Below, in pieces: positions 38,508 through 48,513 of a stretch of DNA of 64,000 nucleotides (the stretch's first letter is position 1; every line of letters starts with the position of its first letter). The DNA is taken from NCBI GenBank assembly GCA_029261135.1, contig JAJDBX010000013.1, positions 431 through 64,430 on the forward strand, given 5' to 3'. Under the pieces are notes generated by a model. It searched no databases and was not told the origin of the DNA. It was given only the letters and a program-made list of their open reading frames with translations. This DNA comes from Nitrospirota bacterium. GTDB taxonomy: Bacteria; Nitrospirota; Nitrospiria; SBBL01; JAADHI01. The position numbers were made by a program, and so were the translations under genes.

Positions 38508-40156
38508 TCATGTGGTGTGGGATGGGCAGAAGATCTCTCTTAACTCTTTCCCGACAAAAGCGGTACAGGCTGAGGGCATAAAACTTTCAGAAGACGCCTC
38601 CTGCATTTCTTGTTGAACCCGTTCAGGGTAGGGCGCATTCAATAAGCTGCCCGGGGAGAGATACGGAAAGATTTCGTCATACCGGCGAACTTCAGTGGCA
38701 CTCACCCGTCGATGAATATGAGAGCGATTCAATTGTGAAGGATGCCGTAAACCAGAGGCCGCTAAAAGCTCAACAACACTTGTTATCGTCTTTTTATGAA
38801 AATTGGCAACTCGTTTTTCCTTTTCGGACACAACAAGTCCTTTGGTAAAAGCCGGATCTTGCGTCGCAACACCGGTGGGGCATTTGTTGCTGTTGCACTC
38901 TAAGGCTTGGATACAACCTAATGCCAGCATCATTGCTCTGGCCGAGTTACATAAATCCGCCCCAAGTGCAAAATTTTTAACCATATGAAATCCTGTGAAG
39001 ATTTTTCCACTGGCGATCACTTTGATCTCTTTTTTCAAATCAAACCCCATGAGGATATCGATGACAAATGCCAATCCATCTCTTAGCGGTGTTCCAACCG
39101 AATTTGTATATTCCAAAGGGGCTGCGCCTGTGCCGCCTTCGCCACCATCGACCGTAATAAAATCCGGTTTGATCCCGGTTTCCAGCATCGCTTTGCAGAT
39201 TGAGGCAAATTCACTTCGCCTTCCGATGCAAATTTTGAATCCGATCGGTTTTCCAGTGGATAACATCCGTAGCTTCTGTTTAAAGTCCATCATTTCAATC
39301 GGCGTTGAAAAACAAGAATGAACCGGAGGAGAATCGATACGAGTGTGTGGTAACACGCCTCTGATTTCAGCTATTTCCCGTGTATTTTTGTCCGCAGGGA
39401 GAATCCCGCCATGCCCTGGTTTAGCCCCTTGTGAAAGCTTTATTTCGATCATTTTAATGTTTTCGTGGGCAGATCTTTCTTTGAATAAGTCCTCAGAAAA
39501 ATGCCCCGACTTGTCACGGCAGCCAAAATAGCCGGTACCTACTTGCCAAATAAGATCCCCCCTGGCATCAAGTGATAGGGACTGACCGAACCTTCCCCGG
39601 TGTTGTGGGCAAAGCCGCCAATCTTGGAGCCTCCATTAAGCGCTAAAATCGCATTTTGGCTCAAAGCGCCAAAACTCATTGCCGAAATATTCAATAGGCT
39701 GGCGTGATACGGTTTGTCACATTCACTCCCCCCAACCATGACTCTGAGGTCATGGTTGATCTCTTGATCATGCAGGGCACTTAGAGAATGATCCATCCAC
39801 TCATAACCGGTGCGATAGACATTCAACTTCGTCCCGAACGGGACAGTATCACGTTGACCTTTTGCCCTTTGATAAACAACCGAACGAAACATTCGGTTGA
39901 TGGGTGTGCCATCAGTATTTGACTCAACAAAATATTGGTGAATCGGAGGACGAAGTATTTCCATAATCCATCGTCCCCGGCCAATCACTGGGAAATTTCG
40001 CCACAGGGTGTGCTTCGCCTGTAATATGTCATAAATACCGCACAAAATAAGCGGAATGATGACATACATCGACCACAAGATCGGAAACCAGAAATAAGCG
40101 ACGGCACTCACAAAAGAGAGGCTTCCAATAGAATAGATGAAGAATATTTTGCGCAT
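38508..40156 (-). pseudogene. FMN-binding glutamate synthase family protein (YerD-like), frameshifted
   Basis: NISAMSFGALS, HNTGEG, WQVGTGYFGCR, EIKLSQGAKPGHGG, VDGGEGGTGAAP, GCIQALECNSNKCPTG; one G short in the G run at ~39557-39562. Confidence 0.88.
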
Positions 40157-42291: not shown

Positions 42292-42440
42292 CTTAAAATC
42301 TCATTAAAAAGATTAAACCGGGTTTTTATAGCATATCCGCTGAGATGAAGAAAGCCGTCCCAAGCGATTAAAAACCGGACATTATAGGGTGACAAGCGTG
42401 TTCAGGTCATTATAAAATGTGCGTCACTTTGGGAGGGCTT

Positions 42441-43562
42441 ATGGAAAAACAAGGATTTCTAAACGGTTTATCCAATCTAGAGTTAAGACTGATTGAGGTC
42501 TGCCGTGCAATGGCAGAAGATGACAAAGTCTTTGTGAGCGCAATAGACCTGCTGAAAGTCATCGCCCTCAATGACTTTCATTTGGACGAAGAAAGCTTTG
42601 AAGAAGAATGTGAGACACTGAATGCTGAAGTCTTGCCCCTCGACCAATACCCTGAAGAAAGCGTCGGGAAGGCCTATCGTACCCTGCTTCAGATGGGACT
42701 GCCCTGGAGAAAGCGATACCCGCTTTTCAGTTTAAGCGGCATGATTGGCGATTTTCATGATGAAGTCCCTTTCGGACCGGAATCGGTCGAGCTGCGTCTT
42801 TCAAAAACCACACAAGTCCTGTTGCCCATCGATAAAAAACCGCTATTACCCCTTGCCCTTTTAAATGGCGTGAAATTATCAGACGGAAGCGAAGTCCCGC
42901 CTCACAATTTGGAAGAACTCTGGCTCGCCATGGAGCACGTCCGCCAAGAACCCAACTTAACATTGCTGGATTTAATGGAGGTAATTCCAGGGCCTGATTT
43001 TGGGCCGGGTGGCACCGTTTGTGATTTTAATGAGGTCTACACCCTCTATGAAAAAGGCGAAGGATTCATCACATTAAGAGGAGAAATCGATACCATCATT
43101 GATGGTGGTCGCACACGAGTGGCGATTAAATCGCTTCCGCATGGGGTGTTGATTCAGGCCGTTCTAGAACAAATTCGTGCCCTCAGTCTGGAAGAAAACT
43201 TCCCATTTTTCATTTTTAAAGATACATCTCAAGGGATGAATACCCATATCGTGATTGATATGCCCCCCGCACTTTCAGCAGAACAACTCAAATCCGTGCT
43301 TTATCAAAAAACCGATCTAGAGCGATCTATACGTTTTAAGTGTGCCTTCAAAGATAACAAGGCTTGGTTGCTTGAAGGCCCTCTGATTTCTATTTTGAAA
43401 AAAGCGGTTTCCCATTGCACTTCGGCTTGGACACAAAAAGATGGTGGATCTGTTGATGTCGTTCCTTTATTTCGCGACATTATTCGGGTCGGAGGATACA
43501 AAAATCCCATGACAAAACTCACCGATGATCGTCGGACAACTCTTCTTAAAGGTATCTCATGA
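42441..43562 (+). CDS. Truncated GyrA/ParC-like paralog lacking the catalytic tyrosine
   Basis: RYPL, LLNG, VPPHNLEEL, IPGPDFGPGG, GEGFITLRG, SLPHGV, LYQKTDL; PFGPESVELRLS replaces AAMRYTEARL; RBS GGAGG. Confidence 0.8.
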   Translation: MEKQGFLNGLSNLELRLIEVCRAMAEDDKVFVSAIDLLKVIALNDFHLDEESFEEECETLNAEVLPLDQYPEESVGKAYRTLLQMGLPWRKRYPLFSLSGMIGDFHDEVPFGPESVELRLSKTTQVLLPIDKKPLLPLALLNGVKLSDGSEVPPHNLEELWLAMEHVRQEPNLTLLDLMEVIPGPDFGPGGTVCDFNEVYTLYEKGEGFITLRGEIDTIIDGGRTRVAIKSLPHGVLIQAVLEQIRALSLEENFPFFIFKDTSQGMNTHIVIDMPPALSAEQLKSVLYQKTDLERSIRFKCAFKDNKAWLLEGPLISILKKAVSHCTSAWTQKDGGSVDVVPLFRDIIRVGGYKNPMTKLTDDRRTTLLKGIS

Positions 43563-44434
43563 AGGCATTCGTTTTTGCCAATGACCAAAATCCGACACAA
43601 GAGATTAACGGCTTGAGTTATGCCTATCTTCCACTTGAAGGTCGCCCCATACTACTCTACGTCTTGATGGCCTTGGATCGTGTTTCTGATATTGAAGAAA
43701 TTACTGTTGTTGGGTCTCAGAAAAAGATCATGCGGGTGATTGAATCGGTGATGTTTGAGATGCCCTTTCAAAAGACAATTGCTGTTTTGGAACAAAAACC
43801 CACTTTATTTGAAAGTATGGCGGATGTGAACAAAGATCGGGGAGACGGACTTGAAATGCTTTCAGAACCTGCGCTCTTTTTACCAGGAAATATCCCCTAC
43901 CTGACCTCAGCCGAAATTTCGACTTTTATTGCCGCATCGGATATGAGAAAATCTGATGTTTGTCTTTCAATCGCCTCAAAAAATGCCCTCAAATTTTTCG
44001 CTCAAAAAGAAGTCACTCGCCAAAATTCCCCCTCATCAAGTCAGACTGTTCGCCTTGGGAATCTTTTAATTGCACGAAGCGAGTCGCTTTTCAAAAATAT
44101 CGTCTTGAAAACCTTTTATGAACATTTAAAAGAATCAAGCTATGATGCAAAAACATTGGAAGGTTTCTTTAAATACCCAGGATTTAATGATGAAAGCAAG
44201 GCTCAAAAACCTTCCCTGTCTGATCTTGAAGAAAACCTGTCACAATACCTAAACTTAGACTTTAAGTTTTCTGAGACAGTGACCGCTGGAAATACCTTTG
44301 CTGTACGTGATCATAATGCCTATCAATTTGTACAAAGGCAATTTAGTGACTGGCGGGAACAGATTATCGAACTCAAAAGTGAGGACGGGGAACAAATTTG
44401 TTCGATTTCAGGAACCATCTGCGATTCCAGATAA
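43559..44434 (+). CDS. Degenerate NTP-transferase (MobA-like) domain protein
   Basis: AYLPLEGRPILLYVLMAL, IEEITVVG, ALFLPGNIPYLT; lacks the N-terminal LAGG and has N for the usual D; ATGA overlap with the upstream gene. Confidence 0.6.
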   Translation: MKAFVFANDQNPTQEINGLSYAYLPLEGRPILLYVLMALDRVSDIEEITVVGSQKKIMRVIESVMFEMPFQKTIAVLEQKPTLFESMADVNKDRGDGLEMLSEPALFLPGNIPYLTSAEISTFIAASDMRKSDVCLSIASKNALKFFAQKEVTRQNSPSSSQTVRLGNLLIARSESLFKNIVLKTFYEHLKESSYDAKTLEGFFKYPGFNDESKAQKPSLSDLEENLSQYLNLDFKFSETVTAGNTFAVRDHNAYQFVQRQFSDWREQIIELKSEDGEQICSISGTICDSR

Positions 44435-45841: not shown

Positions 45842-46645
45842 TTATTCAGAAAAAAAACGAGGAAGGTCACGAACTGCAATCATTCCAATTAAATCACGAA
45901 CCGAAAGCACTCCAATGATTTCACCCCCTTCACTCACACCCAGGTGGCGAATCCCTTTTGTTTCCATTAGTTCTGTTGCATCTTGGACTGAGGCATTGAT
46001 GTCGATATCGATAATCGGGGTGTTCATAATCACGCCGACAGGCACATCAGAAGCTTTTAGGCCATATCCAATCACTTTCCTAACCAAGTCGGCCTCTGTC
46101 ACAATACCCGTAAAAACCTCTTCTTGCATGACGAATAAACAACCAATTTTTTCCGAAGTCATTTTATGAGCTGCTTGACTCACCGTCGCAGAAGCATTAA
46201 TTGTTTTCACATCCCGATGTGTCAGCGCTGTTAGAGGTTTAATCACGTCCTCAGCATCTTCCATCGGTCCTTTCACCACAGACAAGAAAAACCGCACAAT
46301 ATCACGAACAGAAATCATCCCAATCACTTCCCCGTTTTCGGTGACCGCGAGATGACGAATTTGGTTAAAGTACATCAAGTGATTTGCATCCATGGCCGAT
46401 TTTTCGATATCAACATCGATCAAAGGATGAGTCATCACCAATTCAACGGAGGTGTCGAGGGCCATACTCGTAGGAAAAACCTTTCGGACAAGATCACTGT
46501 CGGTCACAATACCCACGACCTTTCCTTCTATTTCAACAAATACGGATCCGATTTTCCGGTCTCGCATGATGGACCCGGCTTCCTGTATTGTTGATTTTGA
46601 AGGAATCTTAATAATTTCCCGATGAACCAAACGACTGACAGACAT
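45842..46645 (-). CDS. Tandem CBS-pair protein (4 CBS)
   Basis: Two CBS pairs (KIGSVFV..VGIVTDSDL, IRHLAV..GMISVRD, repeated); start 46645 behind AAGGAG. Confidence 0.88.
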   Translation of the reverse strand: MSVSRLVHREIIKIPSKSTIQEAGSIMRDRKIGSVFVEIEGKVVGIVTDSDLVRKVFPTSMALDTSVELVMTHPLIDVDIEKSAMDANHLMYFNQIRHLAVTENGEVIGMISVRDIVRFFLSVVKGPMEDAEDVIKPLTALTHRDVKTINASATVSQAAHKMTSEKIGCLFVMQEEVFTGIVTEADLVRKVIGYGLKASDVPVGVIMNTPIIDIDINASVQDATELMETKGIRHLGVSEGGEIIGVLSVRDLIGMIAVRDLPRFFSE

Positions 46646-46833
46646 ATTCAGCTCCTTTTTAATATGAACGACCAACGAAGCTATTCGAATGGTATCCAAA
46701 TTATCCATAACTGTCAATTCTTTCAGGGGCTTAAGATTGACTTTGATGGGTTTGTTCGGTACATTAATATTCAATATCTGTATCCGTTTGCTTGATTTCT
46801 TGCGATGAACTTTTCCCATGTTGAGGAGGTCTA

Positions 46834-48513
46834 ATGGAACGGCCTTGGTTGTCGTCCTATGAACCCAAAGTCCCTGAATCAATCGAATATCCAAATGTCC
46901 CACTCTGCCAATTTTTAAGCGATTCAGCCAAACGTTACCCTGAAAAAGATGCGCTTTCTTTCTATGGCAATCGGACAAGCTATCGTGTGCTTTTAGAACA
47001 AGCAAATCGGTTTGCAAACGCACTTATCGGGCTTGGGGTTAAAAAAGGTGATCGGGTCGCGATCATGCTTCCCAATATCCCTCAATGCGTTGTCGCCTAC
47101 TACGGGGCTTTAAAAATGGGTGCGGTAGTTGTCATGACCAATCCCCTGTATTTGGATCGGGAGATCCAAATACAGATGTCAGATTCTGGCGCTGAAACCA
47201 TCGTAGCACTCGATTTTTTTTATCCACGCATTGAACCCGTTCTCAAGAAAACCCCGCTCAAAAATATCATTCTGACCTCTGTTCGGGATGCACTTCCCTG
47301 GCTCTTATCCCTCCTTTACCCCCTAAAAGCATGGAAAGAAGGACAGTGGCTTAAGATACGAAAAGTGCCCCCTATTTATGACATGAAATCCTTGATGGCC
47401 TCAGCCGCATCCTCCCCGCCTGCTCAAAAAGTGACATCCTCTGACCTTGCGCTGTTGCAATATACCGGCGGGACAACCGGGACACCGAAAGGCGTCATGC
47501 TCACTCATCGGAACCTCGTTGTGAATGCAATTCAATGTCGGCATTGGATGCCTTCTCTTCAAGAAGGGAAGGAACGCTTCCTCGCAGTGATTCCATTTTT
47601 TCATGTTTACGGAATGTCCGCTTGTATGAATATGGCCATTTTTCTTTCTTCAACCCTTATTTTGCAAGCACGCTTTGTGACCAAAGATGTTCTCAAAGCC
47701 ATACATAAAATGCACCCCACCATTTTTATGGGCGTACAAGCCATGTATGTGGCCATTAACAACTTTCCAAACTTGAAAGATTATGATCTTTCGTCTATTA
47801 AGGCCTGTATTTCCGGTGCGGGGCCACTTCACCAGGAAGTCCAACATCAATTTGAAAAGAATACCGGCGGAAAACTCGTTGAAGGATACGGACTCTCTGA
47901 GGCCTCTCCTGTGACGCATGCCAATCCCATTGATGGACAACGAAATGCCGGATCCATCGGCCTTCCTGTTTCAGATACGCTTGCAAAAATTGTCGATATA
48001 GAAAACACAGATAAAATATTAAATATTGGTGAAGTGGGTGAACTTGTGGTCAAAGGACCCCAGATCATGAAAGGGTATTGGCAACAAGAAGAAGAAACCG
48101 CCCATGTCTTAAAAGACGGCTGGCTCCATACCGGGGATATGGCACGGATGGATGAAGAAGGATTTTTTTATATCGTGGATCGTAAAAAAGACATGATCAA
48201 AACAAAAGGGGAAAATGTATATCCGCGTGAAGTTGAAGAGGTGCTCTTTCAATTCTCCAAAGTACAGGATGCGGTTGTTGTGGGTCTTCCCGATCAGTTT
48301 TCCGGAGAAATCATAAAAGCGTACATCGTACTTAAAACAAATACTTCGGCAACAGAAGCAGACATATTAAACTTCTGCAAAGATAAACTTGCTTCATTTA
48401 AAGTACCTAAAACGATTGAATTCCGGACAGAACTACCGAAAACTATCATCGGGAAAGTTTTAAGACGGGTCCTTCTCAATGAAGAGATGAAAAAATTAGA
48501 AGAGGTCGCATGA
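46834..48513 (+). CDS. fadD: Long-chain fatty acid-CoA ligase
   Basis: YTGGTTGTPKG, EGYGLSE, GWLHTGD, IVDRKKDMI, NVYPREVEEVL; upstream TTGACT-N17-TACATT (46737-46765). Confidence 0.92.
   Translation: MERPWLSSYEPKVPESIEYPNVPLCQFLSDSAKRYPEKDALSFYGNRTSYRVLLEQANRFANALIGLGVKKGDRVAIMLPNIPQCVVAYYGALKMGAVVVMTNPLYLDREIQIQMSDSGAETIVALDFFYPRIEPVLKKTPLKNIILTSVRDALPWLLSLLYPLKAWKEGQWLKIRKVPPIYDMKSLMASAASSPPAQKVTSSDLALLQYTGGTTGTPKGVMLTHRNLVVNAIQCRHWMPSLQEGKERFLAVIPFFHVYGMSACMNMAIFLSSTLILQARFVTKDVLKAIHKMHPTIFMGVQAMYVAINNFPNLKDYDLSSIKACISGAGPLHQEVQHQFEKNTGGKLVEGYGLSEASPVTHANPIDGQRNAGSIGLPVSDTLAKIVDIENTDKILNIGEVGELVVKGPQIMKGYWQQEEETAHVLKDGWLHTGDMARMDEEGFFYIVDRKKDMIKTKGENVYPREVEEVLFQFSKVQDAVVVGLPDQFSGEIIKAYIVLKTNTSATEADILNFCKDKLASFKVPKTIEFRTELPKTIIGKVLRRVLLNEEMKKLEEVA

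Follow-up and report, generated by a model that had tools for sequence, protein, structure and literature searches.

DNA gyrase is essential, a major drug target and among the best-studied of molecular machines, and its activity is modulated by a number of small proteins, including YacG, GyrI/SbmC, MfpA/Qnr and MurI, which act by binding rather than by catalysis. To our knowledge, none of these modulators is derived from GyrA itself. Here we describe a 373-amino-acid (aa) protein encoded on the plus strand at 42441..43562 of a 64,000-nt stretch of DNA (hereafter the window) from a Nitrospirota bacterium (assembly GCA_029261135.1, contig JAJDBX010000013.1, positions 431 to 64,430 of the forward strand), which is a member of the GyrA/ParC lineage in fold and ancestry and differs from GyrA and ParC in architecture and in presumed mode of action. 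It resembles the GyrA/ParC breakage-reunion domain (GyrA59, ParC55) in its fold and in its RYP, LLNG, PPHNL, PGPDF and D-x-RRT motifs, but it consists of the head only, without the N-terminal arm, the linker, the coiled coil with its C-gate or the C-terminal domain (CTD), and with an acidic insert added; the HPHGD, Arg-Tyr and GIAVGMAT elements are all replaced, and the gene is not encoded beside a B subunit. Looser parallels can be drawn with the type IIB relatives (Topo VI 'mini-A', TopoVIB-like and Spo11 paralogs), in which a topoisomerase subunit would likewise have been reduced or inactivated and re-used; these belong to an unrelated fold class and are likened by description only (mini-A and TopoVI-like subunits are named in bioRxiv 10.1101/2022.05.08.491100). 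A second analogy may be offered by ClpC2, which is described in PMC10030653 as homologous to part of the drug target ClpC1 and as protecting mycobacteria against cyclomarin A; on that account it would be a shortened copy of an essential protein, without enzyme activity, that works by binding. ClpC2 belongs to another protein family and a decoy role for the protein described here would be an analogy only, although a Clp_N domain is fused to one of the head-only groups considered below.

The protein matches the Pfam family PF00521 (DNA gyrase/topoisomerase IV subunit A) with 79.8 bits against a cut-off of 31 (E 2.5e-22), the match being limited to residues 135-328 of the protein and positions 131-321 of the 432-position profile. 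The sequence also matched 46 distinct GyrA/ParC chains of known structure, the best being Staphylococcus aureus ParC (2inr; E 1.9e-20). An AlphaFold2 model built from 34 family sequences (predicted local distance difference test (pLDDT) 87.4; predicted template-modelling score 0.85) found only GyrA/ParC N-terminal domains among its top solved matches in Foldseek (best Bacillus subtilis GyrA, 4ddq; E 8.7e-22, TM 0.70), and VIA-align placed model residues 1-371 on residues 32-491 of S. aureus GyrA (Z 30.6, root-mean-square deviation 3.3, 334 residues aligned); the same residues span 32-524 of Escherichia coli GyrA with only about 334 aligned. The winged-helix and tower fold of the breakage-reunion domain is present in both comparisons, and the model shows the protein to be the head of GyrA, comprising a winged-helix core, a tower and the strand that closes the N-terminal domain. 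Folds of the YacG, GyrI/SbmC, MfpA/Qnr or MurI type were not among the top PDB matches of the model, no comparison having been aimed at them. The prediction is one of high confidence for a small protein without membrane parts, and the GyrA motifs follow one another along the translation in the order NGL (residues 8-10), RYPL (92-95), LLNG (140-143), PPHNL (153-157), IPGPDF (182-187), GEGFITLR (206-213), LPHGV (232-236) and LYQKTDL (287-293).

The N-terminal arm is absent, the chain opening directly at the xGL..R motif, and the 20-residue linker between the winged-helix domain (WHD) and the tower (residues 136-155 of the genome's own GyrA), counted in a 58-row alignment, is filled at 20/20 positions in all 35 canonical rows and at 1/20 in 9/9 family rows. 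The coiled coil with the C-gate, which is the primary dimer interface, is missing, a stump helix leading to the D-x-RRT end in about 40 residues, and no Pfam match to PF03989 (the C-terminal beta-pinwheel domain) was found in the protein, which ends 9 residues past the RRT motif. The C-terminal 43 residues are not novel, since D362-x-R364-R-T corresponds to D-E-RRT-E-I, the motif with which the breakage-reunion domain of canonical subunits ends; as this closing segment is retained, the coiled coil and C-gate were excised internally and the CTD was cut off just after the motif. Against these losses stands one addition, an acidic helix of 26 residues inserted at the helix-turn-helix position (helix 50-62 in the model; pLDDT of the block 96-97), which includes LDEESFEEECE at residues 48-58.

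The catalytic apparatus has also been rewritten. YPEES (residues 70-74) occupies the position of HPHGD on the helix of the quinolone-resistance region, FGPESVE (residues 111-117, nt 42771-42791) occupies that of AAxRYTE so that the catalytic Arg-Tyr has become Glu-Ser, and the DNA-bending loop GIAVGMAT fills only 7-8 of the 11 aligned positions and has a different sequence. In the 34 orthologs, the position of the Tyr (115) holds S in 17, Y in 12, L in 3 and G in 2, and the Arg position holds E in 23, D in 7 and N, S, G or A in one each, being basic in 0/34. The Tyr of those 12 orthologs never stands beside an Arg, and there is no Tyr specific to the family that aligns with the active site. 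A type IIA protein without these elements cannot form the covalent link to DNA, form the C-gate dimer or wrap DNA, and it follows that this dead, head-only protein is unable to make a phosphotyrosyl link, to dimerize through a C-gate or to wrap DNA.

The rewritten surfaces are themselves conserved within the family, as seen in the YPxSVGYAYR stretch, in GPE-x-VELR, in L-x-DG and in the EELW..E..RQ.P helix. E50, E54 and E58 are nearly invariant and form an acidic stripe on the inserted helix, and all 34 members are acidic (isoelectric point 4.75-6.34, net charge -3 to -22). Four Cys are conserved (C21 in 29/34, C57 in 32/34, C301 in 27/34 and C326 in 33/34), and judging from the alignment these behave as two pairs, because all five sequences that lack C21 also lack C301. 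An earlier note, made from the letters of this DNA alone, had described an intact open reading frame (ORF) with a good ribosome-binding site, collinear GyrA breakage-reunion motifs, an acidic N-terminal insert, the replacement of HPHGD by YPEES and of AAMRYTE by FGPESVE with loss of the catalytic Arg-Tyr, and the absence of both the C-gate coiled coil and the CTD; each part of that description is borne out by the alignments and the model. The frame is uninterrupted on the plus strand from 42417 to 43562 (stop TGA 43560-43562), and ATG 42441 was taken as the probable start because GGGAGGG lies 5 nt before it and because the equivalent Met is the start in all of the orthologs aligned.

Our survey of relatives shows that the gene is maintained by selection and is not decaying. 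In a large protein database, 30 relatives, 365-392 aa long, were found at 49-100% identity, the few that are named being labelled Nitrospirae, Nitrospiria or Candidatus Manganitrophaceae; length in the family remains steady (364-392 aa) at identities down to 39%, and 42 columns are invariant across 34 sequences. Of the 121 genomes sampled from the window's class, 27 carry exactly one copy, and the copies in 27/27 are free of stops (26 full length, one cut by a contig end). The copy is present in 21/27 genomes of the window's order (g1 7/7, g2 3/3, g163 0/3, f2 2/2, f3 6/6 and f45 3/3; families f4, f5 and f46, 0/1 each), and outside the order in f8 (5/5) and f11 (1/4), with 0/85 in the remaining families, including f6 (0/50) and f7 (0/24). 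A phylum-wide genome sample contained the dead paralog in 10/401. The distribution shown by these counts is single-copy and vertical-looking. The ratio of nonsynonymous to synonymous substitution rates (dN/dS; Nei-Gojobori, NG86), restricted to six pairs from four sub-lineages in which dS was unsaturated (0.64-1.10), was 0.073, 0.116, 0.131, 0.134, 0.115 and 0.168; the window's own copy is without a close relative and all of its pairs are synonymously saturated. In the same genome pairs, the family head diverges faster than the canonical head (47, 46, 41 and 40% vs 80, 70, 67 and 69% identity).

In the genome itself, which is 95% complete, a different contig carries a single canonical gyrA (825 aa) and, immediately adjacent to it, a single gyrB (804 aa); since no second A or B subunit was found in the genome, topoisomerase IV (topo IV) is taken to be absent. 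Most families in the class sample likewise have a single A subunit. In the window's class, topo IV-like enzymes are patchy, and their distribution does not match that of the dead paralog: each of the 24 f7 genomes sampled holds a second, full-length, ParC-like (PVQRR) A subunit and no dead paralog, and all 50 f6 genomes have one A subunit. The maintained pseudo-enzyme envisaged in the earlier note thus stands on single-copy open frames in 27/121 class genomes, on low dN/dS (0.07-0.17) and on an Arg position that is never basic, and the canonical gyrA that it expected elsewhere is indeed present. The conserved loss of Tyr that it suggested testing in orthologs is seen in part, as the orthologs are conserved and constrained but their loss of Tyr is not uniform (Y in 12/34), it being the loss of Arg that is uniform. 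The two outcomes that it named as fatal, an alternative Tyr at the active site and neutral divergence without conserved orthologs, were not what we found, the orthologs being constrained and without a family-specific Tyr at the active site. As a whole, the earlier interpretation is partly supported, the GyrB sink, the toxin or phage-inhibitor decoy and the supercoiling regulator being candidate roles that the protein may have.

The family stands well apart from described ones. A profile search of 1.84 billion cluster representatives recovered five full-length clusters (370-379 aa, 454-587 bits) and five fragments. Beyond the family, the scores fell to 143 bits, reached by type IIA proteins of canonical or fused form; the Nitrospirota family itself occurred in no fusion among these representatives. 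The NCBIfam gyrA/parC models gave 62-99 bits against cut-offs of 629-902, so that equivalog thresholds were not reached, and no dedicated family was found in Pfam, NCBIfam, PADLOC or PHROGs, nor any report of a Tyr-less, gate-less GyrA paralog in the titles and abstract openings of the literature searched. In a tree of 54 rows (a subset of 114, partly drawn at random), the dead family falls outside the Nitrospirota GyrA and apart from the ParC-like second copy of f7; an approximately unbiased (AU) test on these 54 rows did not reject a clade uniting the dead family with Nitrospirota GyrA (delta lnL 3.3, p 0.45). On these sequences, gyrA, parC or an older ancestor may each have given rise to the family. 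There is no phage or defence link among the resources searched: no PADLOC defence family matches the paralog, PHROGs gave only weak generic topo II matches, and none of seven viral-contig relatives (24-35% identity) is a family member.

The weaker matches of the profile search included short, gate-less PF00521 proteins that make up two further head-only groups, here labelled MINI and ACT, both seen in metagenome proteins. MINI (P0093, P0129 and P0182-P0189) consists of proteins of 331-427 aa, one of them labelled Planctomycetota, in which the catalytic pair is Arg-Tyr in 6/10 and QF, QF, RF and YY in the rest, and in which an insert of 35-45 residues stands in place of GIAVGMAT. ACT includes eight clusters (P0299 and P0301-P0307) with two N-terminal Clp_N repeats ahead of a dead GyrA head, together with short forms without Clp_N (P0308, P0309 and P0322); its nearest canonical relatives are GyrA of Solirubrobacterales (42-44% identity), and its catalytic Arg is lost in 10/10 (E/D/N), the Tyr position being Y in six and F in four. 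A single protein, P0174 (535 aa), joins a 180-residue N-terminal domain without a Pfam match to a gate-less head with I-Y at the catalytic pair. In addition, P0173 (505 aa, from an AT-rich source) has N-F at the catalytic pair and keeps only a short coiled coil.

MINI, ACT and P0174 all lack the arm, linker, coiled coil and CTD and all retain the D-x-RRT end, so that MINI and ACT resemble the Nitrospirota family in having been excised at the same places; they differ from it in that both lack its acidic insert and Cys pairs, MINI keeps Arg-Tyr in 6/10 and has the insert at the GIAVGMAT site, and most ACT proteins carry Clp_N. Profile alignment joined the Nitrospirota family to MINI end to end (probability 99.9, E 8.4e-37, 336 columns), compared with E 1.3e-18 over 211 columns for the genome's own GyrA, a single sequence. 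In the 58-row tree, 23 head-only rows are split from 35 canonical rows by a branch with a support of 99 (SH-like approximate likelihood ratio test, SH-aLRT), and ACT is not nested in actinobacterial GyrA. This tree came from a quick search with hand-chosen rows, nine rows, mostly long or compositionally odd (MINI_P0189 and ODD_P0173 among them), having been dropped before the ACT and actinobacterial rows were added, and because its branches are long and it is unrooted it does not show common descent of the head-only groups. The sequences would fit either a single origin or convergent trimming. The ESM Atlas also contains a cluster of 313-aa 'hypothetical protein' sequences, commonest in Actinomycetota, with PF00521 in 69% of members. 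MINI was not found in 351 sampled Planctomycetota genomes (P0187 as query, E<=1e-45), and a metagenome scan for MINI with generic patterns gave only relatives at 27-34% identity (80 of 600 kept), which were taken as canonical because none came near family-level identity.

The gene thus encodes a catalytically dead, head-only derivative of GyrA/ParC that is kept by selection. As the explanation of the whole, we tentatively favour, at somewhat less than even confidence, that this derivative acts by binding, perhaps as a mimic of the gyrase head. The conservation of the rewritten surfaces within the family suggests that the dead head would act by binding and not by catalysis, and the acidity of all members, the E50/E54/E58 stripe and the joint loss of C21 and C301 may be further hints of a binding surface. 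ClpC2 would be a precedent for such a partial homologue serving as a protective decoy. If it is a mimic, the dead head would engage something that normally docks on the head of GyrA, be it a subunit of gyrase or an inhibitor or toxin directed at gyrase, and such engagement would buffer or tune what is the cell's only type II topoisomerase; this more specific part, the mimicry itself, is possible but rather more doubtful than the whole. In genetic terms the head-only paralog stands alone, its association with a nucleotidyltransferase-fold neighbour being specific to some lineages.

Several observations weigh against this explanation. No partner or ligand was identified for the head-only protein. 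With the N-terminal arm and linker gone, the canonical interface with GyrB is doubtful, and as the arm makes much of the GyrA-GyrB contact, its absence argues somewhat against a simple GyrB sink. Complex prediction of the paralog with the half of its own GyrB that runs from TOPRIM to the C-terminus gave a score of 0.00 in both runs, made without controls, against a mark of 0.32, and speaks neither for nor against such an interface. CcdB binds the coiled-coil region of GyrA, and the sites of quinolones, simocyclinone and CcdB on GyrA presumably all fall in regions that are rewritten or deleted here; the loss of both the quinolone-resistance helix motif and the coiled-coil region from the 373-aa protein argues against a decoy for known poisons. 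No neighbour is conserved family-wide, the downstream gene being nucleotidyltransferase-like in g1 and g2, a DEAD-box helicase in f2, a PilZ gene in f8 and an EamA transporter in f3. Finally, the stretch is contained in four sequencing runs from one study, all of DNA (three of them perhaps from the source sample), with no RNA run listed.

It is also conceivable, although we consider it unlikely, that the protein binds DNA in its own right, as a nucleoid-associated or transcription-type regulator working through its winged-helix core and tower without cutting. The WHD and the tower are the DNA-binding modules of GyrA, and both are retained. R16, which corresponds to the second Arg in the HRR motif of canonical proteins, is present in 7/7 alignment rows, and R92, R119, R168, R213, R224, R226 and R364 are invariant or nearly so. 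The fusion of Clp_N to the ACT heads may be read in the same way, since the mycobacterial Clp_N protein ClpC2 is described as a repressor in a preprint (bioRxiv 10.64898/2026.06.30.735635). Yet all three canonical DNA-contact motifs (the HPHGD helix, Arg-Tyr and the GIAVGMAT loop) are replaced, a conserved acidic helix sits at the helix-turn-helix position, every one of the 34 members carries a net negative charge, and with the main dimer interface absent the protein would not be expected to form the two-fold saddle for DNA.

A role as scaffold or adaptor for proteins unrelated to gyrase is held to be of similarly low probability; in this genome the protein would be a subunit of a two-protein complex with the translationally coupled nucleotidyltransferase-fold protein encoded just downstream. 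The start of that gene overlaps the stop of the paralog by 4 bp (ATGA), the two are adjacent in 10/10 genomes of genera g1 and g2, and the neighbour's model (pLDDT 75) matches GlmU (Foldseek E 1.6e-11) and a Thermus transferase (E 3.1e-11). Its glycine-rich nucleoside triphosphate loop is degenerate in the window's genus, distant orthologs reading LLAGD.GA..K, and to judge from this the neighbour may itself be non-catalytic. The additional, potentially protein-binding domains of other head-only proteins (Clp_N, and the 180-aa domain of P0174) also fit a scaffold. However, the two genes do not consistently occur together: the neighbour family occurs in 26/27 genomes of the order, five of which have no paralog (three of g163, one of f4 and one of f5), it was found in 0/5 of the f8 genomes, all of which have the paralog, and in the closed f3 genomes G421 and G423 the two genes lie far apart. 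The neighbour is a lineage-specific association and not an obligate partner. It also carries an invariant C-terminal pair, C281...C288.

Far less probable is a retained enzymatic activity, by which the protein would be a cryptic nuclease, or a subunit of a topoisomerase, that relies on a different nucleophile together with a TOPRIM protein encoded separately. The Tyr at the catalytic position in 12/34 orthologs and the Arg-Tyr kept by 6/10 members of the related MINI family would be in keeping with this, but in the window's protein the Tyr position is Ser and the Arg position is Glu, with no basic residue at the latter in 34/34 orthologs. His78, His80 and, in the N-terminal arm, Arg32 are cleavage residues of GyrA, and their equivalents are absent. 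No B-subunit or TOPRIM gene adjoins the paralog in the loci examined, and the genome has a single GyrB-family gene. A decaying, functionless duplicate of gyrA or parC, for which only the faster divergence relative to the canonical head would speak, was rejected as scarcely credible given the open frames in 27/27 holder genomes, the dN/dS of 0.07-0.17, the 42 invariant columns and the steady length.

Coordinates of the gene, of its parts and of the adjacent features are collected in Table 1. The promoter match listed there is to be read against a scan that found 6 sites where 4.1 were expected in shuffled sequence, both the promoter and the terminator results being at chance level. The surroundings of the paralog in the window are housekeeping genes, with maf and dus divergent upstream and a glutamate dehydrogenase convergent downstream. 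Elsewhere in the window, a gene of the glutamate-synthase family (PF01645) is split on the minus strand at 38508-40156, one ORF (39539-40156) covering profile positions 66-110 and the other (38508-39452) positions 139-368, the halves being separated by an 86-nt gap that may reflect a frameshift, a pseudogene or an assembly error. An ORF with four CBS domains (45842-47023, minus strand) overlaps that of an acyl-CoA synthetase (46834-48513, plus strand) by 190 nt, and its GTG start at 47023 is probably over-extended.

Table 1. Positions in the window of the head-only GyrA/ParC-like gene, its regions and adjacent features.
Feature	Position	Strand	Basis and remarks
Sigma-70-like promoter match, GTGACA-18-TAAAAT	42389..42418	+	Consensus match only, weak; lies within the divergent spacer (149 bp) that separates dus from the paralog
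Ribosome-binding site, GGGAGGG	42430..42436	+	
Coding sequence of the dead, gate-less, head-only GyrA/ParC-like protein	42441..43562	+	Pfam, solved-chain and fold matches
Degenerate winged-helix (CAP-like) core, residues 1-130, opening at the xGL..R motif	42441..42830	+	Alignments; VIA range
Family-specific 26-residue acidic helical insert, residues 43-68, with E50/E54/E58 stripe and C57	42567..42644	+	Alignment; model
Former active-site stretch FGPESVELRL, residues 111-120	42771..42800	+	Alignments; Glu114 at the catalytic-site Arg position, Ser115 at the catalytic Tyr position
Tower domain, residues 131-330, with LLNG, PPHNL, PGPDF and TDLE	42831..43430	+	Best-conserved part; PF00521 and alignments
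C-terminal return segment, residues 331-373, ending D362-x-R364-R-T	43431..43559	+	Homologue of the closing strand in the N-terminal domain of GyrA
Gene for 291-aa nucleotidyltransferase-fold protein (GlmU/IspD/MobA-like)	43559..44434	+	Context, not an obligate partner

Taken more widely, the head-only proteins (the Nitrospirota family, MINI, the Clp_N-fused ACT group and P0174) could be imagined as a scattered superfamily of one origin, made up of stand-alone mimics of the gyrase head that act as decoys for gyrase-directed toxins or antibiotics or tune gyrase, having been rid of every element that touches DNA, GyrB or a second protomer; in the Nitrospirota family, the acidic stripe and the Cys pairs could then make binding dependent on redox state or metal. 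We regard this extension as speculative and improbable, more so than either binding to DNA or scaffolding. No non-catalytic protein derived from GyrA was found in Pfam, in NCBIfam or in the titles and abstract openings of the literature searched, and the retention of the head with its gates and chemistry discarded turns the question into what the head of GyrA binds once it is freed from topoisomerase duty. The same excisions in three groups, one of them fused to Clp_N, suggest a general and overlooked use of the fold, and if the protein does engage gyrase or gyrase poisons, it would define a new class of proteins, endogenous modulators of gyrase or decoys for resistance.

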